The notes under the pieces are model-generated. The model was not told where the DNA came from. It did no database searches and saw only the letters and a list, made by a program, of their open reading frames with translations. 64,000 nucleotides of DNA from the NCBI GenBank assembly GCA_016214555.1, contig JACROF010000012.1:4343-68342 (forward strand), written 5' to 3'. The position numbers and the translations under genes are program-made. Shown here in pieces: positions 1-33,433 of this stretch (position 1 is the stretch's first letter; each line of letters opens with the position of its first letter). Source of the stretch: Candidatus Levyibacteriota bacterium (lineage in GTDB: Bacteria; Patescibacteriota; Microgenomatia; Levybacterales; UBA12049).

Positions 1-74
1 TATTCTGGGTTGGATAGGAATCATTGTACTATCATTTCCTGTGGCATTTATCATATCTTTAAAAAAAATCCGTA

Positions 75-614
75 TTAATTTTTCTTAACAACATCGCCAA
101 AACTTTTATATAGTTTTTGAATTTTTGGATCGATGACGATTCGACAATAGGGATTGGTTTGATTGGAGTCGTAATAACCTTGATGGTACTCTTCTGCCTT
201 GGTAAATGACACAAAAGGAATAATCTCTGTCACTATGGGACTTTTGTATACTCCCTTTTTTGTTAATTGTTCTTTAGTAAGCTGCGCAAGCTTTTTTTGA
301 TTTTCATCGTGATAAAAGATAATTGATCTATATTGAGTGCCAGAGTCTGCTCCTTGACGATTAAGAGTTGTTGGATCGTGGAGTTTCCAGAAAATCTCAA
401 GAAGAGTCTGATAGGAGATCGTTTTTGGATCAAAGGTTAGCGTTATTGCTTCTGCATGTCCGCTTTTTCCTCTACTGACTATCTCATAATTCGGATTTGA
501 TGTTTTGCCACCGCTATAGCCTGAGATGACTTCTCTAACCCCCTTGAGTCGTTTAAATATCGCTTCGGTACACCAAAAACATCCACTTGCAAACGTTGCT
601 TTCTCAAGAGCCAT
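75..614 (-). CDS. msrA: peptide methionine sulfoxide reductase MsrA
   Basis: 179 aa; N-terminal GCFWC active-site motif typical of MsrA; overall MsrA-like sequence. Confidence 0.8.
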   Translation of the reverse strand: MALEKATFASGCFWCTEAIFKRLKGVREVISGYSGGKTSNPNYEIVSRGKSGHAEAITLTFDPKTISYQTLLEIFWKLHDPTTLNRQGADSGTQYRSIIFYHDENQKKLAQLTKEQLTKKGVYKSPIVTEIIPFVSFTKAEEYHQGYYDSNQTNPYCRIVIDPKIQKLYKSFGDVVKKN

Positions 615-635
615 GTCTCAATTATACGCGATGTA

Positions 636-1136
636 TTGATATTTGCTATAGTATCTACTATGAAACAAAAAGTAATTGTATTTATAATTTTACTTCTTCT
701 TTTTTCTTCTTTGTTTTTTCTAAATTCTGGTTCAAAATCTCACACAGTGCCTCAGCAAAAACCTACCCCAACCTATATTGAAGGAGCCGCTGAGGCAAAG
801 GTTGTGACCATTAAATTTTTTCAACAGTATGATTCTTGCGTAAAGGAAAAGCACGATAAGACCATAAGTGAACAACAGGAGTTTTGTAGAAAAAGCAATA
901 TTTACGGATCATCAGCGTTAATTAAAAACGTATTATCGCTTTCTGATGAGAAAATAGATCCAGTTATCTGTTCTTCACAACTCCCATCAGGATATCAGGT
1001 TTTTGGTGAGAAAAATAATGCTGGAAGAGTGAGCCTTCGTGTTGCTGAAATGTTTGGCACAGAATCATTTGAAGTAAATGTGCAGGTGGTAAAAGAAAAA
1101 AATGAATGGAAAATAGATAAGATAATCTGTTCTTAG
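636..1136 (+). CDS. hypothetical secreted/membrane-anchored protein (likely starts at internal M, MKQKVIVF...)
   Basis: N-terminal hydrophobic signal/anchor then soluble domain with several Cys; no recognisable family. Confidence 0.4.
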   Translation: MIFAIVSTMKQKVIVFIILLLLFSSLFFLNSGSKSHTVPQQKPTPTYIEGAAEAKVVTIKFFQQYDSCVKEKHDKTISEQQEFCRKSNIYGSSALIKNVLSLSDEKIDPVICSSQLPSGYQVFGEKNNAGRVSLRVAEMFGTESFEVNVQVVKEKNEWKIDKIICS

Positions 1137-1140
1137 ATCG

Positions 1141-1413
1141 TTGACTTCTCAGCCACAATATGCTACTATAGGTTCTCTTATGAAATCTGAAGAAATTTCA
1201 CCGCGAATTGTTATGATCGTTCTGGGCATGATTTTGTCATTTGTAGCTTTCTATTTATCCCTTGTGAGAGTCGATGGAGTAATTCGTAATAACCAAATTA
1301 ATAGCTGTGCAGCAATGTCGAGATTTGAAAAGAATGATAAAAACGATGGATCAACAATAATGTATCCTATACGCGATGTGTTTGTTGATTGCTTAAAGAG
1401 AAAAGGGCTTTAA
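1141..1413 (+). CDS. hypothetical small membrane protein
   Basis: 90 aa, one predicted TM helix; ORF only. Confidence 0.25.
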   Translation: MTSQPQYATIGSLMKSEEISPRIVMIVLGMILSFVAFYLSLVRVDGVIRNNQINSCAAMSRFEKNDKNDGSTIMYPIRDVFVDCLKRKGL

Positions 1414-1432
1414 TACTACTTTATCTAAATGG

Positions 1433-1810
1433 CTATCCAAATAGCTGTTTTTTTAAAGAGATAAAAAGTTTTCCCCAAAAACCTGCTTTTTGAAATTTCT
1501 TATAATCTTCCTTCTTAAAATAATCAATTGTTCCAGGCAATGGAGGATCAATCCAATTTGAGAGAATAAGCCATTCTCTTTTTTCATTTTGCTTGGCAAT
1601 AATTGTTACAAGCGATGGTCCAAATCGTTTTTGAAGTTCGATTGTTCCGGGATTTTTTCCTTGAATATTTTTATCTGGCGATGAGAAGGCTTGCCATGCT
1701 AAATCTTGAGATAAGCCTCGTTGTCCCAATCGCTCAAGAGCATGATTTGTCCAGATAGCACCTTTGTAAAGACGAACAGCCTCAGACATAGAATAAAACC
1801 ATTCTATCAA
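1433..1810 (-). CDS. hypothetical protein
   Basis: 125 aa ORF, non-repetitive composition, no family recognised. Confidence 0.35.
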   Translation of the reverse strand: MIEWFYSMSEAVRLYKGAIWTNHALERLGQRGLSQDLAWQAFSSPDKNIQGKNPGTIELQKRFGPSLVTIIAKQNEKREWLILSNWIDPPLPGTIDYFKKEDYKKFQKAGFWGKLFISLKKQLFG

Positions 1811-1815
1811 ATGTA

Positions 1816-2586
1816 TTACAGAAGTGAAATGGCGTTTGATAGTTCCATCTCACCTATTTTTGTCCTATGTATCATGTAAGTACAAGCGCCACATCCTACT
1901 CGCTCTCCAAGTTCATTAGCAAGGGAGCGAATGTAGGTTCCGCTTGAAACAGTTGCTTGAAATGTCACAACATGAATTTTTTCATGTTCTTTTGAAATTG
2001 CTTCTATTTGTTGCCAGTTTGCAATAATTTCTTTTTGTCTAAAATCTCCCTTGACGCTTTTTATTTCTTTAATAATATTTTGGATGAACTTTTTTTTCGT
2101 TTGTTTTTTGATATCAAGAAAAACAAAATCAAAAATTTTTATTGGATGATCGGGGATCTTTATTGTAGAGAGTTGATTTTTTCTAGCCCAATAGAAAAGA
2201 GGTTTCCCCGCAATAGTTTTTGAGGAATAATTCGGATAAGCTTGGGTATTTTTTGCAAGGAAATACGGTACTTCTTTAGTAATTTTTTCTTTAAGATTTT
2301 CTGGGACACTATTTGTGGATAAAATTTTCCCCATGTGGTCATACGTGTCTGTTTTAAATCCAAATAGGATTGAGAATGTATATACCTTTGTTAATTGCTC
2401 AAAATTTTGTCTTTTTTTATTAGCTTCACCAAGTAATAATAATAAAAGTCCTTGTGCCATTGGATCAAGTCTGCCAGCATAGCTTACTTTTTCACTTGGT
2501 GGAATTTTGTACTTTTCTCTATAAAGATTTATTGCTTGAAGAGGGGTTAAGCATTTTGGTTTGTTGACCAGCACTACATTTGACAT
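1816..2586 (-). CDS. truB: tRNA pseudouridine(55) synthase TruB
   Basis: RLDPMAQGLLLL motif (catalytic Asp region) and C-terminal GTYIRSLANELGERVGCGACTYMIHRTKIG, both characteristic of TruB. Confidence 0.75.
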   Translation of the reverse strand: MSNVVLVNKPKCLTPLQAINLYREKYKIPPSEKVSYAGRLDPMAQGLLLLLLGEANKKRQNFEQLTKVYTFSILFGFKTDTYDHMGKILSTNSVPENLKEKITKEVPYFLAKNTQAYPNYSSKTIAGKPLFYWARKNQLSTIKIPDHPIKIFDFVFLDIKKQTKKKFIQNIIKEIKSVKGDFRQKEIIANWQQIEAISKEHEKIHVVTFQATVSSGTYIRSLANELGERVGCGACTYMIHRTKIGEMELSNAISLL

Positions 2587-2692
2587 GCGCAGATTATATC
2601 ATTGATGTGTTTTATCAGATATTCTAAACAATAGATCAAGCTAAATCTCCTTGCCTCTTGTCAAAGACAGATAAGTGTTATAGAGTAACAAA

Positions 2693-3304
2693 ATGATTGA
2701 CCAAGAGTACCCTCAGTGTAGTCATGACGGATCTCCGCTTGTAATAAAACAGACAAAGAGGTCTCCTGAGCAGCTGAAAAAATCTTTTTATTATTCTGCT
2801 TACTATTTCTGTCCACGCTGTAAAAGAATATACCATGACGAAAAATTTAAAGTGGTCTCAGAGAGGCCTACTCTTTTTAATGCGCCAAATAGTAAAAAAA
2901 TATTTGATATAGAAATATGGACTGATGGAGCATGTAGTAGAAATGGAGCGCCAAATGCAAAAGCTGCATGGGCATTTGTTAGCGGTAAACACGAAGAGGC
3001 AGGATTGGTTGATGGAAAGCAGACTAACAACAGAGGTGAGGCCTTAGCGATCTACCACGCTTTAGTATGGGCTGCTTCAAAAGGTTACAAAAAAATTAAG
3101 ATTAATTCTGATAGCCAGATTACCCTCCATGGCGTTGCTAAAGACCCAAAGAAAGTAAAAGAAAATCGTGATATTTTTGAGAGGATTTATCATACAGTTT
3201 TGAAGCACAACTTAGAAGTTGAGTATGTAAAAGTACTTGGTCACTCTGATAACAATGATAACAATAGAGCTGATGCTCTTGCCGTAAAATTGTCTTTAGA
3301 ATAA
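2693..3304 (+). CDS. rnhA: ribonuclease HI with N-terminal CxxC..CxxC zinc-ribbon domain
   Basis: RNase H fold motifs (IWTDGACS...GEALAIYHAL...INSDSQ...LGHSDNNDNNRADALA) preceded by about 65 aa containing CSHDG..CPRC. Confidence 0.7.
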   Translation: MIDQEYPQCSHDGSPLVIKQTKRSPEQLKKSFYYSAYYFCPRCKRIYHDEKFKVVSERPTLFNAPNSKKIFDIEIWTDGACSRNGAPNAKAAWAFVSGKHEEAGLVDGKQTNNRGEALAIYHALVWAASKGYKKIKINSDSQITLHGVAKDPKKVKENRDIFERIYHTVLKHNLEVEYVKVLGHSDNNDNNRADALAVKLSLE

Positions 3305-3396
3305 GCAAGTACTACTTTCTTCAAAGATGAGTGATTCCTAGTAATTGATGTATTAATTATCGTAGTAAAATCCTATCAATTCGCTATACTGAGTAA

Positions 3397-3945
3397 GTGA
3401 TTTTTTATCTTTTATTTGTCATAACAATTGCGCTTTTGCTTCTTCTCCTATCAATGGTTTGGCCACCAGATAGTCCATGGTCGCCATGGTGGAGAACAAA
3501 TAAGAAAACTGCATTGAAAATTATCAAGCTCGCAAAAATTACTGAAAAAGATTTTATTGTCGACTTGGGATGTGGTGATGGGACGGCATTAATAACTGCA
3601 GCAAAGAATAAGAAAGCGCATGGTGCTGGAGTTGAGATTGACCCCTTTCGAGTATTAATCGCAAAAATAAGAGTGCTTTTAGGTGGGGTTTCAGATTTAA
3701 TTGTCATTAAAAGAGGAAATCTTTTTGATCAAGACATATCAGGCTCATCATTAGTTATTGTTTATCTTATTCCAAAAACACTAAAAAGACTTAAGAAGAA
3801 GTTTTTTGCGGAATTAAAGCCTGGGACTAAAGTCATCAGCTACATGTATCAAATAGATTTTTTACCTGAGGTGGTGCGTGATGAAGATAGTCATGTTTAT
3901 GTTTATCTGATACCAAAAAAGCGAACTAACACTGAAAAAAATTAA
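3397..3945 (+). CDS. class I SAM-dependent methyltransferase with N-terminal TM anchor
   Basis: VDLGCGDGTALITAA glycine-rich SAM-binding motif I; N-terminal hydrophobic helix. Confidence 0.6.
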   Translation: MIFYLLFVITIALLLLLLSMVWPPDSPWSPWWRTNKKTALKIIKLAKITEKDFIVDLGCGDGTALITAAKNKKAHGAGVEIDPFRVLIAKIRVLLGGVSDLIVIKRGNLFDQDISGSSLVIVYLIPKTLKRLKKKFFAELKPGTKVISYMYQIDFLPEVVRDEDSHVYVYLIPKKRTNTEKN

Positions 3946-7927: not shown

Positions 7928-9772
7928 CTAGAAGTAGTCTTTTGATGTGAATTCAGAGAGAATACTTCTGTTGGTATTTTGTTTGATAAGCTCAGCGGGC
8001 AGTTCAATGACAAAGCGAGAAATCGTATTCGTAGTTTTTTGTCCAAAAAATAATCTTCTTCTGGCATGAGTAAGAAACAGTTTATTTTTTGCTCTGGTTA
8101 TCCCTACATAACAAAGCCTTCTTTCTTCTTCTAGTTCGTGCTTATCCATCAGGGAGCGAGAATGAGGGAAAAGTCCTTCCTCCATACCTATCATAAAGAT
8201 GATGGGGAATTCAAGCCCTTTTGCTGCATGAAGAGTCATCAGGGTGATGGCATTTTTTGAGCTTTTATCCTTTGAAGATGCGTATTCCTGCTCAACAAGT
8301 GAGACATTCTCTAGAAATTCTGTGCTGTCAGGGAAAGCGAGCGCAACAGAGCGAAGCTCCTTAATATTTTCAAGTCGGGCCCTATCATCTTCATCTTTGT
8401 CATCATAGAGATCTAGATAAGAAGTTTCTTCCAAAATTTTATCAAGCAGTTCTATAGTTGAGTGATTCTCAAGTGCTGTATTCCTTGTGAGGAAATCAAG
8501 AAATTTTTGCATTCGTTGCTTTCCAATCTTTTCAATTCTTTTAAGAGCTATAGTTTCATTTTGATTGATAGCGTGTCGAAGGTACGAGAGTACATCTTTA
8601 ATTTCTTTTCTTTCATAAAATCGTGTCCCACCAATAAGAATATAGGGAATGCCGTGATGGAGAAAAGCTTCTTCAATTACACGAGACTGTGCGTTGGTCC
8701 TATAAAGAATGGCTACATCATGAAGGCTGCTGATTTTTAATTCGATAAGAGTTCGAATAATAAAATCTGCCTCATCCTGTTCATTTATTGCTTCATAAAT
8801 TTCTATTGGGTCTCCAGAATCATTTTCAGTCCAGAGCTTAAGGACAGGATGGGAGGTGTTTTTTGCAATGATGGCTGTTGCGCTATCAAGAATTTTTTGT
8901 GTTGATCTGTAGTTTTGTGAGAGAGAGAAAGTTTTTGCATGCATAAAATCATTGGTAAATTTGATAAGATTTCGATAGTCTGCTCCTCTCCAGCTATAAA
9001 TACTTTGTGCAAAGTCTCCTACAACGCAGATCCGTTGCTTTTTTCCAGTCAAAAGTTTCGTTAAAACATATTGCGCCCTATTGGTATCCTGATACTCGTC
9101 GATAAGAATATAGTCAAAATGTTCTTGATATTTACTTAGAACATCAGGATGTTTTCGAAAAAGTCTTACCACTTGAAGGATAAGATCATCAAAATCTAAA
9201 GCGTCATTTTCTTTTAGAATTTTTTGATAAAGAGGATATATTTTTGCAACTGCTTCTTGGAAAACCCCTCTTGCAAATTGGTGATATTCATCGTCAAAAA
9301 TGAGCTCGTTTTTTGCCTGAGAAATAGTTGCAAGAATCGAATGCGGTTTGAAATCTTTGGTCGAAATCATCAGTTTTCCCATAGCATCTTTTATGACCTC
9401 TATCTGATCTGAGTCATCATAGATGCTAAATCGTGTTGAAATTCCAAGATATGAGCCATCCGCACGAAGGATACGTGCGCAAAGTGAGTGAAATGTTGAG
9501 ACAAGAGGTTGTCCAGATATTTTCTTATCAGCGTGACCGGCAATAAATTTCTTAATTCTCTCTTCCATTTCAAGAGCCGCTTTATTGGTGAACGTCACCA
9601 TAAGAATTGACTCAGGGGTAATGCTTTTTTCAAGTATCAGATACATGACTTTATAGGTGAGAACTCTTGTTTTTCCTGAGCCAGCTCCAGCAAGAATAAT
9701 CATAGGACCGTCAGTATATTCGACGGCTTTCTTTTGTTCGTCATTTAGGCCATTGAGCAGCTGTTCATTCAT
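7928..9772 (-). CDS. ATP-dependent DNA helicase UvrD/PcrA family
   Basis: 614 aa; Walker A AGAGSGKTRVLT, UvrD-like helicase motifs throughout. Confidence 0.85.
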   Translation of the reverse strand: MNEQLLNGLNDEQKKAVEYTDGPMIILAGAGSGKTRVLTYKVMYLILEKSITPESILMVTFTNKAALEMEERIKKFIAGHADKKISGQPLVSTFHSLCARILRADGSYLGISTRFSIYDDSDQIEVIKDAMGKLMISTKDFKPHSILATISQAKNELIFDDEYHQFARGVFQEAVAKIYPLYQKILKENDALDFDDLILQVVRLFRKHPDVLSKYQEHFDYILIDEYQDTNRAQYVLTKLLTGKKQRICVVGDFAQSIYSWRGADYRNLIKFTNDFMHAKTFSLSQNYRSTQKILDSATAIIAKNTSHPVLKLWTENDSGDPIEIYEAINEQDEADFIIRTLIELKISSLHDVAILYRTNAQSRVIEEAFLHHGIPYILIGGTRFYERKEIKDVLSYLRHAINQNETIALKRIEKIGKQRMQKFLDFLTRNTALENHSTIELLDKILEETSYLDLYDDKDEDDRARLENIKELRSVALAFPDSTEFLENVSLVEQEYASSKDKSSKNAITLMTLHAAKGLEFPIIFMIGMEEGLFPHSRSLMDKHELEEERRLCYVGITRAKNKLFLTHARRRLFFGQKTTNTISRFVIELPAELIKQNTNRSILSEFTSKDYF

Positions 9773-22793: not shown

Positions 22794-23362
22794 TGCTTAG
22801 CCCCCTTTTCACCTTCTAACTTACTTTTCCCCAGGACTCCAGATGAGATTACGGCTGCAATTTGCGCTGTCGTTGATTTATTTTCAATTCTATCGATACT
22901 TACCTCAGATAGCTCTTTTTTTTCTTGAATACCTCCTACGAAATCTCTCAAATTTTTTATATCAAAAGCAACTAATTCAATATGGAGAGAATTATTGCTT
23001 ACAGACATACTTTTAATAGAAATGTTATTTTTTTGCGCAAGCAATGTTATGTCTTCTAAGAGAAGGGGAAGAAAAGCAACATCGGTGTTAAGCTTCTTGG
23101 TTTGAAGAAGCCTTTCTTGCAATTGGCGATATGAGTCTTCTTGTTCTTTGAAAGTTTCTACAATTCTTGTTTTTGCTTTAATTTTGTCATGAAGGTCGAT
23201 GATTTGACGATCAAGCGTAAAACGATAGAGAAAAGCGGCAAGCGCAATCGTTTCTGTAAGAATGACTAAAAATCTTCCGCCAGTAATTGCCCATTTAATA
23301 AAAACATCAAGGGAGGGAGTGCCCTTTTTTTTAAGAAGATTGATTGTTAGTTGTTTGGTCAT
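22790..23362 (-). CDS. type IV pilus assembly protein PilN-like
   Basis: 190 aa; N-terminal LTINLLKKK (INLLP-like PilN motif) followed by TM helix and coiled coil. Confidence 0.55.
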
Positions 23363-23537
23363 GGCAGGCAGATTGTGTTTAACAACACAAACACAGCCGA
23401 CAGATAATCAGCCTTATCTCAGTCTAAGATCTTTTTCCTTAAAAGTAAAGAAAAACACTTTTTATTTCATGCTAGAAATAGGCGCAAAATTGTGTTATAC
23501 TTTCTTTGTCCCGAATAGATACGGGATTTTTCTTTCT

Positions 23538-25646
23538 ATGGCAGATACACAACGACAGGTACCACTTGATAAAATCCGAAATATCGGAATTATTGCTCAT
23601 ATTGACGCAGGTAAAACAACAACTACCGAGCGTATTCTTTTCTATACAGGCCGAACTTATAAGATCGGAGATATCGATGAAGGGAACACGCAAATGGATT
23701 GGATGGAACAGGAGAAAGAACGCGGAATTACTATTGTTTCAGCTGCGACTACTACTTTCTGGAAGGATCATCGCATCAATATAATTGATACTCCTGGCCA
23801 TGTTGATTTTACCGCAGAAGTAGAACGTTCTTTAAGAGTTCTTGATGGAGGCATTACCGTGCTGGATGCAGAAGAGGGAGTGCAGTCTCAGTCAGAAACT
23901 GTTTGGCGTCAAGCTGATAAATATAAAGTTCCTCGTATCTGTTTTGTCAACAAAATGGATAAATTAGGCGCAGACTTTCTTGCAACAGTAAAAAGTATTG
24001 AAGATCGACTTGGTGCAAATCCGGCAATTATGGTTCTTCCTATTGGTGCAGAAAGTACGTATGTAGGAAATGTTGATCTTTTGACAAGACAATCAATCCG
24101 TTGGAGCTCTGAAGAGCTTGGAGCAAAGTTTGACCTTTCAGACGAAATTCCCTCCGATATGAAAGATCAGGTAGAAGAGTATAGAGCAAAACTTATTGAA
24201 AAAATTGCTGAGACAGATGATGCACTTTTGGAAAAATATCTTGGCGGAGAAGAGCCTTCAATTGACGAGCTCAAGAAAGCTCTCCGTGCGGCAGTTATCG
24301 CCTACAAACTTGTTCCTATTTATGCTGGAACTTCGCTTCGCAATAAAGGAGTTCAGCCACTTTTGGATGCGGTTGTTGATTTTCTCCCCTCCCCTGTTGA
24401 TCTTAAAGAGGTTACAGGAGTTCATCCCAAAACAGGAGAGCCAGAAGTAAGACAGCTTGTTCCAGATGCTTCATTTAGCGGTCTTGCATTTAAGATCCAA
24501 AACGATCCTCATGTAGGAAAATTGACCTATTTCCGTGTTTATTCAGGAAAAATTGAAGCTGGATCCTATGTATATAACAGCACAAAGGGAGTTAAAGAGC
24601 GCGTAGGAAGACTTCTTATGATGCATGCAAATCAGCGTGAGGAGATAAAAGAAGGATTTGCTGGAGAAATCGTTGCTGTCGTTGGCCTAAAAGATACAGG
24701 AACTGGTGATACATTGTGCGACGAGACAAAGCAGATTGTTTTGGAAAAAATTTCGTTTCCTGAGCCTGTTATATCCCTTGCTATTGAACCTCAAACAAAA
24801 TCTGATCAGGAAAAACTTGGTTATGCCCTTAAAAGACTTACTGAGGAAGATCCAACATTTTCTGTTAAAAGCAATCATGAAACAGGACAGACGATTATTT
24901 CAGGTATTGGAGAATTGCAGCTTGAGGTTATGGTGGATCGCATGAAGAGGGAGTTTAATGTGCTTGCAAATGTTGGTGCGCCGCAAGTTGCGTACAAAGA
25001 AACATTTACAGAAAAGGTAGAGGCTGAGGGTAAATATATTCGCCAATCAGGAGGAAGAGGACAATTCGGACATTGTTGGCTTCGTATAGAGCCAAAAACT
25101 CGTGGAGAAGGAAATGAATTTGTGAGCGAAATTAAAGGAGGAGCTATTCCTGCGGAATTTGTTAAAGCTGTTGAAAAAGGAGTTTGGGAGACGCTTGAAA
25201 ATGGCGTTCTTCTTGGATATCCAGTCGTTGATGTAAAAATTGCGTGCTATGATGGCTCATTCCACGAAGTAGACTCAAGTGAGGTTGCATTTAAGATTGC
25301 AGCAAGTCAGGCGATTCAGGCTGCATCTAAAAAATCCCAAATGAATTTACTTGAGCCTATTATGAAGGTTGAGGTTACAACACCCTCTGAGTATATGGGA
25401 GATGTGATGGGAGATCTTTCAAGTAAGCGTGGGCAAATCGTTGGAACAGAAGAAAGGTCGCGAGCAACGATCATTAATGCGCTTGTACCCCTTGCTGAGC
25501 TCTCAGGCTATGCAACTCAAATTAGGTCGATGTCTCAGGGGCGAGCATCTTATTACATGGAGCCAAGCCATTATGATATCGTTCCAAGAAATATCGTTGA
25601 GCAAATGCTTGCTAAATCCACCTTCACAGGCCGTGTTGAAGCATAA
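23538..25646 (+). CDS. fusA: translation elongation factor G
   Basis: [38 protein letters not shown]...DTPGHVDF...NKMD; about 703 aa from ATG at 23538; the ORF-track start at 23262 is an upstream in-frame extension. Confidence 0.9.
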
Positions 25647-26394: not shown

Positions 26395-27489
26395 ATGACT
26401 AAAACTTTTTTTCTTGTTATTTCCATTCTTGCGATCATACTTTTGGGAGGAGTTGTTGGTATTCGTTATTTCAAAAATAGCATTAATACTCTTTTTGTCC
26501 AAAGTGCAAATCAAAAACTTATTGCTCCCTCCCCTACTCCTATTGGCCCTGTTGCTCAAAAAATTCACGAGACACTTTTTGTTCCCTATTGGAGCTTTTC
26601 TGATAACTCTGAGGATATAGGATCGCACGCAACAGTTGTCTATTTTGGGTTAGGGGTCAATAGTCATGGAGTTGTCACAAGTGATGAGGGGTATAAGAAG
26701 CTCCCATCATTTGTGAGTTTAACAAAGGGAAGCAAGAAAATTCTTGCGGTAAGAATGACAGATACAAGCTCAAATACCAATATTCTTAAGGATAAAAAAG
26801 CTCAGGAAACCATTGTCTCAGAAGTAATCACTATTGCACGAGACAATGGATTTGACGGAATACTTCTTAATATTGAGGTGTCAGCACTTCCTTTCACATC
26901 GCTTATTAATCAAATAACAGCGTTTAATACTCTTTTTGCAGACAGATCTCACGCAGGCAATTTAACATATAGCATTACTGCGTATGGAGACACGTTTTAT
27001 CGAGCAAGGCCATTTGATATGAAAAAGCTTGGAGAAAAAGCTGATCATGTCTATGTGATGGCGTATGACTTTCATAAAGCAAAAGGAAATCCAGGCCCTA
27101 ATTTCCCTCTCAAAGGGAACGATGTCTATGGGTATGATATGGAAAGGATGATTAATAACTTTGCCAACGTGGTTGATCTTAAAAAGCTAGTTGTTATTTT
27201 TGGTATGTATGGATATGACTGGGTAGTTGATGAGAAAGATGTGGCTCAGGAGATAGGTGCCCCTTTGAGTCTTTTGGAGGTTTCATCAGGAATTGTTGAT
27301 AATTGTAATCATGATTTGTGTAGTTGGGAGAGGGATGGTATTTCCTCTGAGACGAAAGCTGTGTATGAGGATGAAGGACAAAAACATGTAGTATGGTTTG
27401 AGGATAAAGAATCTGTGAAAAGAAAACAAGAATTTCTCAAGCAACATGGCATTGGGGAGTTTGCTTATTGGGCGTATTCCTATTTTTGA
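26395..27489 (+). CDS. membrane-anchored glycoside hydrolase family 18-like protein with degenerate catalytic motif
   Basis: N-terminal TM; FDGILLNIEV in place of DGxDxDWE (Glu kept, two Asp replaced); VMAYDFHKAKG resembles GH18 MxYDxxG motif. Confidence 0.5.
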   Translation: MTKTFFLVISILAIILLGGVVGIRYFKNSINTLFVQSANQKLIAPSPTPIGPVAQKIHETLFVPYWSFSDNSEDIGSHATVVYFGLGVNSHGVVTSDEGYKKLPSFVSLTKGSKKILAVRMTDTSSNTNILKDKKAQETIVSEVITIARDNGFDGILLNIEVSALPFTSLINQITAFNTLFADRSHAGNLTYSITAYGDTFYRARPFDMKKLGEKADHVYVMAYDFHKAKGNPGPNFPLKGNDVYGYDMERMINNFANVVDLKKLVVIFGMYGYDWVVDEKDVAQEIGAPLSLLEVSSGIVDNCNHDLCSWERDGISSETKAVYEDEGQKHVVWFEDKESVKRKQEFLKQHGIGEFAYWAYSYF

Positions 27490-27500
27490 TTAAAAAAAAT

Positions 27501-27530
27501 CCCCGCCTGTATCAATTGACACAGACGGGG
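27501..27530 (-). terminator. GC-rich hairpin (CCCCGCCTGT/ACAGACGGGG, 9 of 10 bp) followed by T-run on the minus strand
   Basis: lies between convergent stops (27489 plus strand, 27539 minus strand); the A8 run at 27492-27499 reads as T8 on the minus strand. Confidence 0.6.
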
Positions 27531-27538
27531 CGTGAGGC

Positions 27539-28576
27539 TTACAAGACCAATGCATAGTCTTGACGAAAGCTATCAAACGCAGCAATTGCGATTGAGAGAG
27601 TCCGATCGTCTAGACACACATGGTCGCACAACATCATGGTGCGAAAGCCAGCGTTATAGAGATAGGCAAGTTCCGAAAAATCAGCACATTCAGGTGTGTC
27701 CTGGGGTTCTCCAGTGATTGGGTTTTTTTGCCCCAAGGAAAGGAAGATTCGTGAACCAACACAGGCCTCGGGATCTTTTTGAATAATCTCCTCAAGTGCT
27801 TGAAGAATGTGATGAGGGCGAGGAAGCTCAACATAGAGGTCTCCCCGTGCCGCCATCAATCTGACGTTTGGCTGTGGCTTAAAGCTCTTTCTGACATAGG
27901 TCATTCCCTTTGGTGACTCAATCTTGAGCATGACTGTTGCGTCGTGCCCAACAAGATCTAGGAATTGCCCTACGTCCTCCTCAGACTCTACATAGGAAAG
28001 AAAGAATCTTGTGAATCCTGCAGCCTTCACCATCTCAATTTTTTCAAGTTCCAGGTCTGTGAAGAGTGGTCCTTGAATTGAGAGGCTAGCATTGCGGATG
28101 CACATCGAGTCGCCTGGTACGACTTCAGATCGAGGTCCATATCGTTTGCCAGGTGCAAAAATTAGCCTCTTACCGTCATCTGCGATAGCTATGAGGATTG
28201 CATGATCTGATCCAGATTTGAGCTCTACTGGAATACCACGGGCTGGATCGACATTTAGAGAGATAGGGTGATTGAGGGTGACTTCCAAATGCGTTGGATA
28301 GTCATGCACCTCTGCAACCCGAATCTGCCGACTTTTGATGTCATACCACATAGGGACAGTGGAATATGTCTTGCGAAGGACCTCAAGGTCCTTCGCAAGA
28401 TCAGAAGGGTTGACCATCGGCCTATTGAGGCGGATGCCGCTTAGGCGATGGTCAGTTGCAAATGTGGCAAAATGCGGCATTGTTGGCCACAAAGTTGCCA
28501 TGAGATCCAGCCTCTCAGGAGTCATAGGAAAATCCTGAGGCTGTGTCTTAAAAAGGTCGAGAAACCGGTTTGGCAT
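27539..28576 (-). CDS. pyruvate-kinase-like (PK barrel) protein with about 120-aa N-terminal extension
   Basis: VMLKIESPKGM and RLMAARGDLYVELP spaced exactly as PK KIEN...MVARGDLGVEIP (22 residues); downstream TMMLCDH resembles PK VMLSGE; start taken at MPNRF (ATG 28576-28574) after a GGAGG RBS; the ORF track extends to 28642. Confidence 0.5.
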   Translation of the reverse strand: MPNRFLDLFKTQPQDFPMTPERLDLMATLWPTMPHFATFATDHRLSGIRLNRPMVNPSDLAKDLEVLRKTYSTVPMWYDIKSRQIRVAEVHDYPTHLEVTLNHPISLNVDPARGIPVELKSGSDHAILIAIADDGKRLIFAPGKRYGPRSEVVPGDSMCIRNASLSIQGPLFTDLELEKIEMVKAAGFTRFFLSYVESEEDVGQFLDLVGHDATVMLKIESPKGMTYVRKSFKPQPNVRLMAARGDLYVELPRPHHILQALEEIIQKDPEACVGSRIFLSLGQKNPITGEPQDTPECADFSELAYLYNAGFRTMMLCDHVCLDDRTLSIAIAAFDSFRQDYALVL

Positions 28577-29537
28577 CTTCATCCTCCAAGAGCATGATCG
28601 ACTTTCCGCTATGATCGCGGGGATCACCAGGGGAGACAGCAAGAATTGTCTTGAGTGACCTGTATGCCGCCTCTACCTGTCCTGGTTTTTGTCGCTCATT
28701 GATCTCATCGTGATAAAAATCAACTTTACCGGTCTTTTTGGCGAAGATACCCAAAATGACATCAACGACTCGGTTGGGGTCACGAAGAATCGCGATGTGG
28801 TCCTCTCCCAGTAGCTTCACCCAGTCAGCATGAATTGCACTACTCTCCGGGTCTAGGGACTGCAGTGAATCAGCAGTCGAATGGCTATAGGGCTTTTGAA
28901 TGAAGTAGACATCGGAGTCTTTATTCAGCTTAGCAAAAAGCTCTGCTGTTGTGATTCGTTCTGTCGTGACCTTGGCAAATTGTTGCGCAAGTTTTGGGCT
29001 CACCTCGTCATATGGTGACTCGTCGCCAAGGAAAATAATGAGCGGTCTTGTCGCATTGGGCATTGAGACGTTGTGAGATACGTACAGTGCAGCGAGCTCA
29101 TAAGACTCAGTGGTTTTGGGGCCACCACCACCTTCATATTTCAATCGAGTTGGGTCGAGTTCCGCCTTGAGATCAGCGCCTTGTGCAAAGGCGTGTCCTT
29201 GAAGCGGATATTTGTCACAGGTTGCATCGCCAACAGCCATGAAAAGGATCTGGGCGTCATCATCAAAGTAGATCTGACGAGCGTAGGTGTCAAGCAGAGG
29301 TAGCTTGCCACGAATTGTGGCTGGCCACTCCTGCATTGATCCGGTGACGTCAATCACAACGATAATTGGGTGCCTACTTGTTGTAGTAATAGTTGCTGCA
29401 AGAAGAGATGAGGCAGATACCCCAGAGCTTACAGCACTGGAATAGCTCCGTCCAGCGTCAACAACGTAAGCGTTGCGTGCAGCAGTGAAATCGCTATCAT
29501 CTCTCCATTCTCTTGGAGTACTGATTGCACTTCCCAT
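28548..29537 (-). CDS. von Willebrand factor A (vWA) domain protein
   Basis: IIVVIDVTGSM MIDAS-type DxTGS motif at the start of an alpha/beta domain; 329 aa. Confidence 0.55.
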   Translation of the reverse strand: MGSAISTPREWRDDSDFTAARNAYVVDAGRSYSSAVSSGVSASSLLAATITTTSRHPIIVVIDVTGSMQEWPATIRGKLPLLDTYARQIYFDDDAQILFMAVGDATCDKYPLQGHAFAQGADLKAELDPTRLKYEGGGGPKTTESYELAALYVSHNVSMPNATRPLIIFLGDESPYDEVSPKLAQQFAKVTTERITTAELFAKLNKDSDVYFIQKPYSHSTADSLQSLDPESSAIHADWVKLLGEDHIAILRDPNRVVDVILGIFAKKTGKVDFYHDEINERQKPGQVEAAYRSLKTILAVSPGDPRDHSGKSIMLLEDEDAKPVSRPF

Positions 29538-29539
29538 CG

Positions 29540-30556
29540 TTAGCTCCTTTCAGCCTTCAGTGGCTTCATGCCGGTATGAAGACGTCCAAACGACTCAAGC
29601 CGAACTCTTTGAATAGTCTCGCAGAGGTCCTCCTTGCCCCAGTGAGGTCTTTCCATCGGATCTTCACGTACTAACCTGCTGATGAATTCGACGAAAGGAT
29701 CAGGGGTCTTTTTGGGAACTTTCTTGTCTTTGACAAGATTTGGGTCGCGCGTGAGCGCGAAGATTAATGTCATACCGAGCGCATAAAGATCTGACTCTGG
29801 GATTGGTGGTTTGCCTGCTATTTGCTCAGGGGGAGCAAAAAGCTCAGTATAACCAATAGTACGAGATGTACCAGTTGGCTTGACTGATGAGAGTCCAAAA
29901 TCGATCAGTACAGCCATGTGTTTGTCAGGCTGCACGATGATATTTTGAGGCTTGATATCTCCATGAATGATTTGATTATGGTGTAGATATGCAAGCGCAT
30001 TAAGTGAGCGCTCTGCTATCCACGAAACTCCTTCAGGATCCAGTGGTCCGAGATCGCCAACAAGTTTGAAGAGGGTATCTCCTGGAATGTAACTCATCAC
30101 AAGCGCAAGGCTTCCATCATCCATTTTGAGCATATCTCTCATGGTGGGAAGCGCGTAGTGACGAAGATCCCATACTACTTTTGCTTCATCGATCAGAATC
30201 TGATTTCTCAGAGTTGATACTTTTGAGCAAAACTTGATACAGACGAGTTCTCCCGTAATCAGATGTTCTGCTTTGTGGGTTGGGCCAAAGCCTCCCTCTG
30301 CGATTTTTTCGATAATTCGATACCCTCCGACAATCATGTCGTCTTTTTTACCTCGATCCCGCATAAAGCGAGCGAGTTTATCCGGGTCACTAATTATTTC
30401 ATATGCAGTATTGATATGTACGAAGATTTCGGGATCACCACCTTTGTCAGGGTGATATGCTCTTGCAAGCCCTTTCCATGCGCCTTCAATGGCAGCAGGG
30501 TCTGCGTTTGGCAATAGACCAAGGGTTTGGAATGGATCAGTAATAACTGTCACCAA
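29540..30556 (-). CDS. J-domain (DnaJ-like) fused to Hanks-type Ser/Thr protein kinase
   Basis: N-terminal AYHPDKGGDPEIF (HPD J-domain signature); kinase subdomains AEGGFGPTH / VCIKF / HGDIKPQNI / DFGLS / APPE. Confidence 0.7.
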   Translation of the reverse strand: MVTVITDPFQTLGLLPNADPAAIEGAWKGLARAYHPDKGGDPEIFVHINTAYEIISDPDKLARFMRDRGKKDDMIVGGYRIIEKIAEGGFGPTHKAEHLITGELVCIKFCSKVSTLRNQILIDEAKVVWDLRHYALPTMRDMLKMDDGSLALVMSYIPGDTLFKLVGDLGPLDPEGVSWIAERSLNALAYLHHNQIIHGDIKPQNIIVQPDKHMAVLIDFGLSSVKPTGTSRTIGYTELFAPPEQIAGKPPIPESDLYALGMTLIFALTRDPNLVKDKKVPKKTPDPFVEFISRLVREDPMERPHWGKEDLCETIQRVRLESFGRLHTGMKPLKAERS

Positions 30557-30858
30557 TTTCTCCTTTCCTAATTATTCCTGCCAGTAGGCAGCGTCTTGGC
30601 TACTATTTATAGTAAACAAGACGCCACCTGCTGACATGATTTTTCGGTACTTTGTTAAAGAACAAAAATTTCTCTTCCATGACATATTAGTCAGGTTTGA
30701 AATTCGTTGGTTATTATAACACATACTACCTATAGTAGTGATTTGTACTTGTATCAAACGCTTGAAGTAGGTGAAAAATTCTTTTTAGAAATCGATGAGG
30801 CTAATTATTTTTTAAAATTTAGCCTCAGAGTTATACAAAATTACTCCTGAAAAGGGTA

Positions 30859-30887
30859 TTGACGCTCGGGGGGAAATGTAGTATCAT
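30859..30887 (+). promoter_or_regulatory. sigma70-like promoter upstream of tuf (TTGACG-17 nt-TATCAT)
   Basis: near-consensus -35/-10 with 17-nt spacer about 55 nt upstream of the tuf ATG. Confidence 0.45.
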
Positions 30888-32590: not shown

Positions 32591-33433
32591 ATGAATACAT
32601 TACTAGGAACAAAAAAACAACAAATGCAAGGATTTCTTGAAAACGGAACACGTGTCCCGCTTACGCTTGTCGTAGCTTCAGAAAACGTCATGATGTCACA
32701 AAAGACTACAGATAAAGATCGCTATAACGCAATAACACTGGGCTTTGGTAAAAGTAAAAAAACTTCCAAGGCCCTTTTTGGTCAGGCTAAAAAAGCAGGC
32801 CTTACCTATGTCCCTCAAGCTTTTAAAGAGGTAAAAGTAGATGATTTTAATACGTTTGAAGCAGGAAAAGTAGTAGTAGTTGATGAAGTGTTTAAGCCTG
32901 GCGATATCGTTGATGTAAAAGGTACTTCTAAAGGAAAAGGTTTTGCAGGAGGAGTAAAGAGATATAATTTCCGCGGTGGACCTAAGACTCATGGTCAGTC
33001 AGATAGACACCGTGCTCCTGGATCTATCGGATCAGGAACTACTCCAGGAAGAGTATATAAAGGTAAAAGAATGGCGGGAAACATGGGACATGATACGGTT
33101 ACAGTGAAAAATCTTGTTGTTATCGATGTTGATTCTGCAACCAATACACTCTTTATCAAAGGGTTAGTGCCTGGAATTTTGGGTGGAACAGTTGAAGTAA
33201 CAAAAGTTGGAGAGTTGAAAGGTAAGTATTTTACCCCACTCTACAAGGTTTCGTCTGATACAGCAAATAGCGAAGAAGTAAAAGAGGAGAAGGTAGAAGT
33301 AGTTCAGGAGTCTAACGAGGTTGTTGAATCTGTTGCAGCTATAGATGCTGAACAGCCAAAGTCTGAAGAGCCACAAGCTGAAGCAGTAGAAGAAGTTAAA
33401 GCTGACGAGGTAAAGGAGGAAAACAATGGATAA
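32591..33433 (+). CDS. rplC: 50S ribosomal protein L3 with acidic C-terminal extension
   Basis: GKGFAGGVKRYNFRGGPKTHGQSDRHRAPGSIG core; about 65 extra C-terminal residues rich in E/K/V. Confidence 0.9.
   Translation: MNTLLGTKKQQMQGFLENGTRVPLTLVVASENVMMSQKTTDKDRYNAITLGFGKSKKTSKALFGQAKKAGLTYVPQAFKEVKVDDFNTFEAGKVVVVDEVFKPGDIVDVKGTSKGKGFAGGVKRYNFRGGPKTHGQSDRHRAPGSIGSGTTPGRVYKGKRMAGNMGHDTVTVKNLVVIDVDSATNTLFIKGLVPGILGGTVEVTKVGELKGKYFTPLYKVSSDTANSEEVKEEKVEVVQESNEVVESVAAIDAEQPKSEEPQAEAVEEVKADEVKEENNG

Follow-up and report, generated by a model that had tools for sequence, protein, structure and literature searches.

The gene order around tuf in a metagenome-assembled genome (MAG) of Candidatus Levybacteria raises the question of what three unusual genes are doing there, how they arrived and whether they act together. 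They lie in a stretch of 64,000 nt (contig JACROF010000012.1 of assembly GCA_016214555.1, positions 4,343 to 68,342; hereafter the window). An original prediction, made from this stretch without database searches, had read them as a compositionally foreign operon encoding a J-domain kinase, a von Willebrand factor A (vWA) protein and a protein resembling pyruvate kinase (PK). We found that the block holding these genes is a real horizontal insertion, carried as cargo at a hot spot between a GH18 gene and tuf, and that the three genes co-evolve as one unit. This three-gene cassette is widespread in Patescibacteria (the candidate phyla radiation, CPR), in DPANN archaea and in huge-phage-like contigs, and is not peculiar to the window genome. 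The block and its genes are as follows (coordinates are those of the window).

27,490-30,852, no strand: inserted block, comprising the operon and its own upstream region; delimited by breaks in homology to relatives and by steps in guanine-plus-cytosine (GC) content, with a tetranucleotide z of 4.9.
29,540-30,553, minus strand: gene A, a J domain joined to a Hanks-type Ser/Thr kinase, 337 aa; the start is GTG at 30,553 and the open reading frame (ORF) reaches TTG at 30,556.
28,548-29,537, minus strand: gene B, a vWA-fold protein of 329 aa forming a new sequence family, with the motif D63-x-T65-G-S67, which resembles a metal-ion-dependent adhesion site (MIDAS).
27,539-28,576, minus strand: gene C, a mini pyruvate kinase of A and B domains, 345 aa; alternative start at 28,525.

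The three co-directional ORFs fill the block, and A and B are 2 nt apart. The likeliest start of gene C is the ATG at 28,576, which follows a ribosome-binding site (RBS; GGAGG-N6) and overlaps B by 29 nt; NCBI also gives a length of 345 aa. The alternative ATG at 28,525 would leave a gap of 22 nt to B. The ORF map bears out the minus-strand operon of three genes that had been predicted, and identical proteins are on record as Candidatus Levybacteria MAG entries MBI5044918.1 to MBI5044920.1, on a contig of 299,555 bp.

Pattern-limited scans found the cassette at 70 genome loci, drawn from 185,579 species representatives and to be read as a lower bound, and at 19 IMG/VR loci. The host genomes were assigned to many Patescibacteria classes, Woesearchaeota, Nanoarchaeia and AR15, together with a few doubtfully labelled MAGs. 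Complete genomes that bear the triad include CP010425.1 and JAVHLR010000001.1. Lengths of the IMG/VR contigs span 6 kb to 442 kb, mostly 46-442 kb. A profile scan was needed to recover these contigs; viral contigs scanned with C as a single query sequence gave nothing. All three genes, ordered alike, are also present in LR745208.1, a 485-kb GenBank record named 'uncultured phage'. Mapping with hidden Markov models and phmmer showed the order kinase-B-C in ~80 of 87 non-redundant loci. The exceptions are mostly cuts at contig ends, and the kinase is divergently oriented in 4 loci. Clustering of all flanking ORFs revealed no fourth conserved gene. The pairwise distance matrices of A, B and C were found to correlate (r = 0.57-0.76), and the observed value was attained in none of 500 Mantel permutations. 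Conservation is highest in C, whose mean pairwise identity is 0.57. In a crude neighbor-joining tree, the DPANN clade is largely apart from the CPR clades, and viral contigs are scattered in both. The window and locus L008 (CAYWEJ010000008.1) share a long branch with no evident donor. Some taxonomic labels of MAGs with cassette loci (Gammaproteobacteria, Spirochaetales, Binatia and Methanosarcinales) are doubtful, including that of L008, which is labelled Gammaproteobacteria though syntenic to the window.

In gene A, residues 7-61 match DnaJ (E 7.5e-11), with the HPD motif at positions 35-37, and residues 79-303 match Pkinase (E 1e-33). Both domains score above their Pfam cut-offs (PF00226, 42.4 bits against 27.8; PF00069, 117.1 bits against a gathering cut-off of 31.7), in agreement with the fusion first proposed. 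The best 120 relatives of A all contain both DnaJ and Pkinase, and the protein ends ~35 residues past the Pkinase match. The catalytic residues are present, and K108, D200, K202, N205, D219 and E244 are kept in 78-80 of the 80 cassette kinases. Because these residues are invariant or nearly so, the kinase is predicted to be catalytically competent.

The A- and B-domain fold of pyruvate kinase and its catalytic residues were both identified in gene C, for which a divergent pyruvate-kinase fold had been predicted. In profile alignments, K201, E203, D229 and S258 align to K220, E222, D246 and T278 of PykF and to the yeast equivalents. The N-terminal motifs GIRLN and FDxKGRQLR are invariant, as are the catalytic residues and the lid domain across ~85 C sequences. 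The allosteric C-domain (PK_C, PF02887) had no match in C, and the protein ends after the last barrel helix (residue 327). Members of the family are ~305-410 aa long, and the 672 database entries related to C at E ≤ 0.001 are of similar length and nearly all unnamed. At locus L069 there is a stand-alone, divergent C homologue with uninformative neighbors. C shares with canonical PykF and PykA the TIM barrel of the A domain, the B-domain lid, the catalytic Lys/Glu/Asp/Thr-Ser residues and the R-x-N and D-x-K-G motifs. The canonical enzymes, in contrast, have a C-terminal allosteric domain and are only ~16-21% identical to C, whose gene, unlike theirs, is invariably accompanied by those for a kinase and a vWA protein. 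The conserved residues suggest that C is a competent pyruvate-kinase core.

Gene B matches the fold of the vWA/integrin-I superfamily and carries a MIDAS-like DxTGS motif. Residues D63, T65, G66, S67, D104, E135, D172 and E173 are invariant, which upholds the vWA/MIDAS assignment of the original prediction. The disordered N- and C-terminal tails (residues 1-16 and ~303-329) are conserved yet have low pLDDT (the per-residue confidence of structure prediction). No family for B was found in Pfam, NCBIfam or PADLOC (the last at E ≤ 0.1), and its sole family match was phrog_2971, a PHROG of unknown function. A database search returned 454 relatives of similar length at E ≤ 0.001, nearly all unnamed. 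A full-library profile search returned 1,610 representatives of 50%-identity clusters (E ≤ 0.001), 383 of them at E ≤ 1e-30, and almost all were stand-alone proteins of 300-350 aa. A BFVD search gave only generic viral vWA matches.

The combination had been put forward as undescribed, and this still stands: PADLOC returned only generic kinase models, B falls in no Pfam, NCBIfam or PADLOC family, and no description of the triad was found in the literature searched. Kaur 2020 and Krupa 2005 mention links between vWA proteins and kinases but not this cassette.

How the cassette came to lie beside tuf can be answered from close relatives of the window genome. A scan of metagenome contigs with the GH18 protein from next to the block yielded relatives in which fusA, tuf and S10 have 88-98% identity to the window genes; fusA and tuf are 90-95% identical in those that lack the block or hold other cargo. 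The sequences that bound the block on its two sides belong to the host backbone.

26,395-27,489, plus strand: GH18 gene (Pfam Glyco_hydro_18, E 1.4e-22), the left boundary.
30,859-30,887, plus strand: tuf promoter TTGACG-17-TATCAT, detected in a promoter scan; the right boundary, outside the island.

In this lineage the block is located between GH18 and tuf in the order fusA-PIG-L-GH18-tuf. The original prediction had placed it inside the fusA-tuf junction; the interval is right, and the junction was not pristine, as PIG-L and GH18 were already there. The GH18 gene is syntenic in L008, L098-L104, L178 and L179. The site is empty in four relatives: L098 has the order fusA-PIG-L-GH18-(502 bp)-tuf with no block, and the gap between GH18 and tuf is only 134-176 bp in L101, L102 and L104. 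Two relatives (L099 and L100) carry an aminoglycoside-phosphotransferase (APH)-like gene at the site, one (L108) carries a 594-aa unknown protein and a GNAT acetyltransferase, and in one (L179) the cassette is preceded by APH and GNAT genes. Nucleotide homology to L098-L108 stops at the GH18 stop codon (27,485-27,491) and restarts at 30,853 (30,809 in L101), just upstream of the tuf promoter, which falls in the segment conserved with the empty-site relatives. Because homology breaks off and resumes at these points, the block was identified as hot-spot cargo. The block is compositionally atypical and is absent from the same site in close relatives, as expected of an island. No integrase ORF was found in the block and no tRNA within 29 kb. 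Flanking direct repeats were sought and only short, chance-level matches were seen.

The compositional contrast is clear at several scales. The window as a whole is AT-rich, with a GC content of 0.30-0.44 in 1-kb windows. The mean is 0.477 in the block against 0.366 in the remainder of the window. At 200-nt resolution, GC climbs near 27,500 from 0.355 to 0.485, stays at 0.435-0.515 and drops to 0.32 past ~30,560. The elevation had been correctly noticed, at a slightly high figure of 50-53%; the flanks, put at 20-37%, were measured at 0.30-0.41. GC at third codon positions (GC3) is 0.477 in gene C, 0.408 in gene A and 0.452 in gene B, against 0.276 ± 0.030 in the other 52 long ORFs (maximum 0.323; tuf 0.314), which makes C and A outliers with z = 6.6 and z = 4.4. 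The segment 27,501-30,500 is the top tetranucleotide outlier among 3-kb windows of the whole stretch. Usage of CGG is 0.17 in the block genes against 0.02, and CGC, CTG and CTC are likewise enriched. Of the shift to CGG, GCC and CTG that had been described, CGG and CTG hold, whereas GCC does not (0.10 against 0.09). The foreign composition is consequently upheld by windowed GC, GC3 and tetranucleotide scores alike.

Abrupt GC steps at both borders are also what an assembly chimera, or a contaminating fragment joined into a Levybacteria contig, would produce. Against this, three independent assemblies (L008, L178 and L179) show the same junction of GH18 with gene C, and L178 (tuf 94% identical at the amino-acid level) also that of gene A with tuf. 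L008 is syntenic with the window, 77% identical in nucleotides across 7 kb, and has a matching GC step. The chimera reading is effectively refuted by the independent assemblies, and we give it almost no weight. As the same junctions recur in L008, L178 and L179, the insertion predates the divergence of the carrier genomes. Together with the empty sites in close relatives, these shared junctions establish the horizontal acquisition that had been proposed. Over 72 loci, the GC content of the triad follows that of its flanks (r = 0.95), with a mean excess of +3 points, and the largest excess, +11 points, is that of the window. This indicates that the cassette is an old resident of most of its hosts and comparatively recent in the Levybacteria lineage of the window.

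We then asked which genes accompany the cassette and its relatives. A paralogous vWA subfamily, denoted B', has 36-49% identity among its members and 27-33% to B, and the N-terminus reads MGGGxW..DAY. In all four settings seen, B' is immediately beside a homologue of adenylosuccinate synthetase (PurA-like). These include Vibrio phage Va1 (Va1_038/039; L181, 3333-5415) and the Bxz1-cluster mycobacteriophages, of which ~200 records were matched by B; the hosts of these jumbo phages are unrelated. In LinStu, the one Bxz1-cluster record inspected (L097, 2667-6383; gp257-gp260), a Hanks-type kinase lies immediately upstream of B'. In the CPR loci L043 (193-4795) and L054 (1469-3846), the B'-PurA-like pair adjoins the triad itself. 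L043 also has a second pair of vWA and mini-PK genes, without a kinase. Because B' adjoins PurA-like genes in four settings, the B/B' clade recurs as the partner of small purine-nucleotide enzymes. The jumbo-phage sets resemble the cassette in their homologous vWA proteins (27-39% identity), all of which match phrog_2971, in the kinase upstream of it in the mycobacteriophage and in the purine-nucleotide enzyme downstream. They differ in their enzyme, an adenylosuccinate-synthetase homologue where the cassette has a pyruvate kinase, and in the absence of any detected J domain; all their products are annotated as hypothetical.

On the huge-phage-like contigs, the genes flanking the cassette are almost wholly co-directional. 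They encode nucleotide and DNA enzymes (ThyX, DHFR, DNA methyltransferase, HNH and endonuclease VII nucleases), takeover-type proteins (Srd-like anti-sigma factor, ADP-ribosylglycohydrolase and R2K ATP-grasp enzymes) and translation-related proteins (Thg1, EF-G, EF-Ts and aminoacyl-tRNA synthetases). Such a gene content is characteristic of huge phages. No hallmark structural genes were seen within ±8 kb of the cassette on viral contigs, so the assignment of the IMG/VR cassette contigs to huge phages is probable only. In three of them, L079 (8924-11005), L087 (8932-11016) and L091 (8878-11022), EF-G follows directly after the cassette, with EF-Ts, RNase HII and aminoacyl-tRNA synthetases nearby; these are either translation-rich huge phages or misclassified cellular fragments. 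Adjacency to translational GTPases was considered as a general trait and rejected: it was observed in 8 of 87 loci against ~9% expected by a rough estimate, and L079, L087 and L091 form one clade. Across the loci, the immediate neighbors are mostly housekeeping genes, and the GC content is host-like in most genomes. PhoU adjoins the cassette in 8 loci (DPANN), PP2C in 5 of ~73 and ThiF/E1 in 3, each lineage-restricted; EF-G does so in 3-4.

The nearest described system is the TerY-P triad, which consists of a TerY-type vWA protein, a PP2C phosphatase and a Ser/Thr kinase with a zinc ribbon or OB fold (Anantharaman et al. 2012, as summarised in PMC11090510); related neighborhoods of vWA, PP2C and kinase genes have also been described (PMC7159879). 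As far as that summary describes it, TerY-P shares with the cassette three genes, a stand-alone MIDAS vWA protein with a Hanks kinase, mobility and a proposed phosphorylation-dependent switch, and a few cassette loci have an adjacent PP2C gene. The cassette differs in its third gene, a pyruvate-kinase core, and there is no PP2C gene in the operon of the window. Its kinase has an N-terminal J domain and lacks the C-terminal zinc ribbon or OB fold given for TerY-P in the summary. B matched no TerY, PADLOC or Pfam vWA model, and the distribution over CPR, DPANN and huge-phage-like contigs is also unlike that of TerY-P. We regard the cassette as a variation on vWA-kinase signalling whose third component, an enzyme, is novel. 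Eukaryotic proteins of the GAK/auxilin type likewise hold a kinase and a J domain in one polypeptide and couple phosphorylation to Hsp70 recruitment. Their domain order is the opposite of that in gene A, their kinase families are unrelated and they have extra PTEN and clathrin-binding domains, so that no homology is implied.

Taken together, we tentatively favor a reading in which the cassette would be a self-contained enzyme unit that generates nucleoside triphosphates (NTPs) from phosphoenolpyruvate (PEP) and is controlled in trans by the kinase and its vWA partner. C would be the enzymatic output, transferring phosphate from PEP to ADP or other (deoxy)nucleoside diphosphates ((d)NDPs) to give pyruvate and NTP. 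Because C lacks an effector-binding domain, we propose that its regulation is in trans. The kinase would phosphorylate B, C or both. The MIDAS site of the vWA protein could bind an acidic or phosphorylated motif, and B would clamp or release C depending on phosphorylation. Where the J domain is intact, it may recruit DnaK so that the complex is remodelled, or so that the kinase is guided to DnaK and its clients. The net effect would be a portable, self-regulated supply of energy and nucleotides, used by huge phages for takeover and kept by some ultra-small cells as an accessory. The nucleotide and energy theme is suggested by the PurA-like enzymes beside B' and by the position of the cassette among ThyX, DHFR, Thg1 and Srd-like genes. 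A wider version of this idea, to which we assign a low probability, is that the cassette and the B'-PurA-like module represent a class of portable purine-nucleotide or energy-charging units. In each, a MIDAS-vWA protein of its own, in many cases alongside a J-domain Hanks kinase, would gate a minimal enzyme of nucleotide metabolism, and the units would be exchanged among huge phages, CPR and DPANN as an NTP supply independent of the host; in the window, the pyruvate kinase without C-domain would serve as a PEP-driven (d)NDP kinase.

Several findings weigh against this PEP-driven, trans-controlled unit. C scores below the curated pyruvate kinase cut-offs (PF00224, 22.6 against 30 bits; TIGR01064, 30.7 against 306.4), and its substrate could therefore differ from PEP and ADP. 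Only 47 of the 80 cassette kinases retain an intact HPD motif, so coupling to DnaK would be optional and non-essential; loss of the motif was not found to follow the split between bacteria and archaea. The nearest relative outside the lineage (L180, 55% identity; 1-3424 and 9129-9665) adjoins SduA_C (Shedu), PLD-like PLDc_2, TraG/VirB4-like, M23 peptidase, NUDIX and YfbR-like HD genes, surroundings characteristic of mobile elements or defence islands. Three DPANN loci (L005, L029 and L032) adjoin an E1/JAB module, which may be a ubiquitin-like conjugation or defence module. In these loci the cassette kinase has no J domain, and the order (L005, 220-8333) is a 447-aa unknown protein, JAB peptidase, ThiF/E1 (PADLOC E1-E2), the cassette and a CYTH protein. 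Finally, the restriction to CPR, DPANN and phage-like contigs with sporadic spread would also fit a conflict system. Such a system, which we consider unlikely, would act in anti-phage defence or abortive infection: the vWA protein and kinase would sense infection, and the freed pyruvate-kinase core would drain PEP or skew nucleotide pools, or the kinase would hit translation or chaperone targets, leading to growth arrest. Beyond the neighborhoods just described, it is favored by the HGT-prone distribution (horizontal gene transfer), by the position at a cargo hot spot, by the domain-level likeness of gene A to defence kinases in PADLOC-DB v2 (mad6, E 3e-37; PD-T4-6; also MkoA, all generic kinase models) and by TerY-P-like vWA/PP2C/kinase modules being reported as stand-alone defence systems (PMC11090510). 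However, B and C matched no model in PADLOC-DB v2 at E ≤ 0.1, and the components do not all match any one known system there. Only 3 of 146 immediate neighbors in 73-74 loci, all of them E1-E2, match defence models, and the anti-phage or stress-signalling function once suggested for the block thus found no specific support. The host-matching GC in most loci is that of a long-term resident, defence systems usually cross phyla whereas the cassette was found only in CPR, DPANN and phage-like contigs, and B-like partners stand beside nucleotide enzymes in lytic jumbo phages.

A sensor of PEP or energy status is a somewhat more doubtful alternative still. Here the PK-like protein would bind PEP or nucleotides and control the Hanks kinase through the vWA adaptor, and the output would be protein phosphorylation, for example of DnaK clients. 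The kinase opens the operon and is, of the signalling parts, the one under the tightest sequence constraint; pairs of a vWA protein and a kinase are an established kind of signalling module, and mycobacteriophages carry a kinase and a B-like protein without a pyruvate-kinase gene. The invariance of the catalytic residues and lid argues instead for catalysis over mere binding, and it is C that is best conserved among the cassette proteins. We consider it quite improbable that the cassette is a housekeeping operon, with C as the glycolytic pyruvate kinase of reduced organisms and two genes as its regulators. Some sources do annotate family members as pyruvate kinase, and the host-like GC, the housekeeping neighbors and the crude tree, in which an archaeal clade is for the most part apart from bacterial ones, would fit. 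The cassette is, however, absent from the site in close relatives, sparse among species representatives in the pattern-limited scan, whose 70 loci are a lower bound, compositionally foreign in the window, carried by probable huge phages and equipped with a C protein under the curated cut-offs.

CPR bacteria, DPANN archaea and huge phages are rich in conserved genes of unknown function, and this compact co-evolving unit is common to all three. If C is active and gated by the kinase and the vWA protein, allosteric control of a central enzyme could be replaced by phospho-signalling acting in trans. C would then represent a new family of minimal pyruvate kinases, and the cassette an auxiliary energy and nucleotide module traded by phages and episymbionts. 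If it is a defence system instead, it would have a metabolic effector of a new type. In either case, the B family is a vWA clade without a Pfam model.

Sequence signals around the operon, some of them candidates only, are listed below.

27,501-27,530, minus strand: intrinsic terminator of the operon, a 13-bp stem (8 GC pairs) and then a T-run.
30,578-30,636, minus strand: 59-nt leader hairpin (24 bp) of gene A, identified by fold energy and compensatory pairs.
30,713-30,721, minus strand: candidate extended -10 element TGTTATAAT of the operon, conserved in the window, L178 and L179.
30,797-30,826, no strand: inverted repeat GAGGCTAA-N14-TTAGCCTC, between the operon promoter and the tuf promoter.

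The GC-rich hairpin and T-run described in the original prediction were recovered as the terminator. The inverted repeat that it had placed at about 30,578-30,592 is real (30,578-30,591) and forms not a separate element but the base of the leader hairpin. This hairpin is located downstream of the TGTTATAAT element and ends 9 nt before the purine-rich RBS region (30,557-30,569). The minimum free energy of the 130-nt leader is -42.3 against -24.3 for shuffled sequences (z = -5.5), and comparison of the window with L178 and L179 shows two compensatory pairs. Neither the leader nor the rest of the block matched any Rfam family. A structured 5' leader is not a general trait of the cassette, as the median z is -0.6 and only 10 of 72 loci have z < -2. 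No -35 partner was found for TGTTATAAT, and the element is thus not listed by a consensus promoter scan. The repeat at 30,797-30,826 is present as predicted; its second arm, however, is not conserved in L178, which makes a function of this repeat doubtful.

Two minor observations concern the flanking host genes. In the fusA ORF (23,262-25,646, 794 aa), the long N-terminal extension is probably untranslated; the conserved EF-G sequence begins near 23,544. Read by eye, the translation of the L3 homologue at 32,591-33,433 shows a C-terminal acidic extension of ~70 aa.

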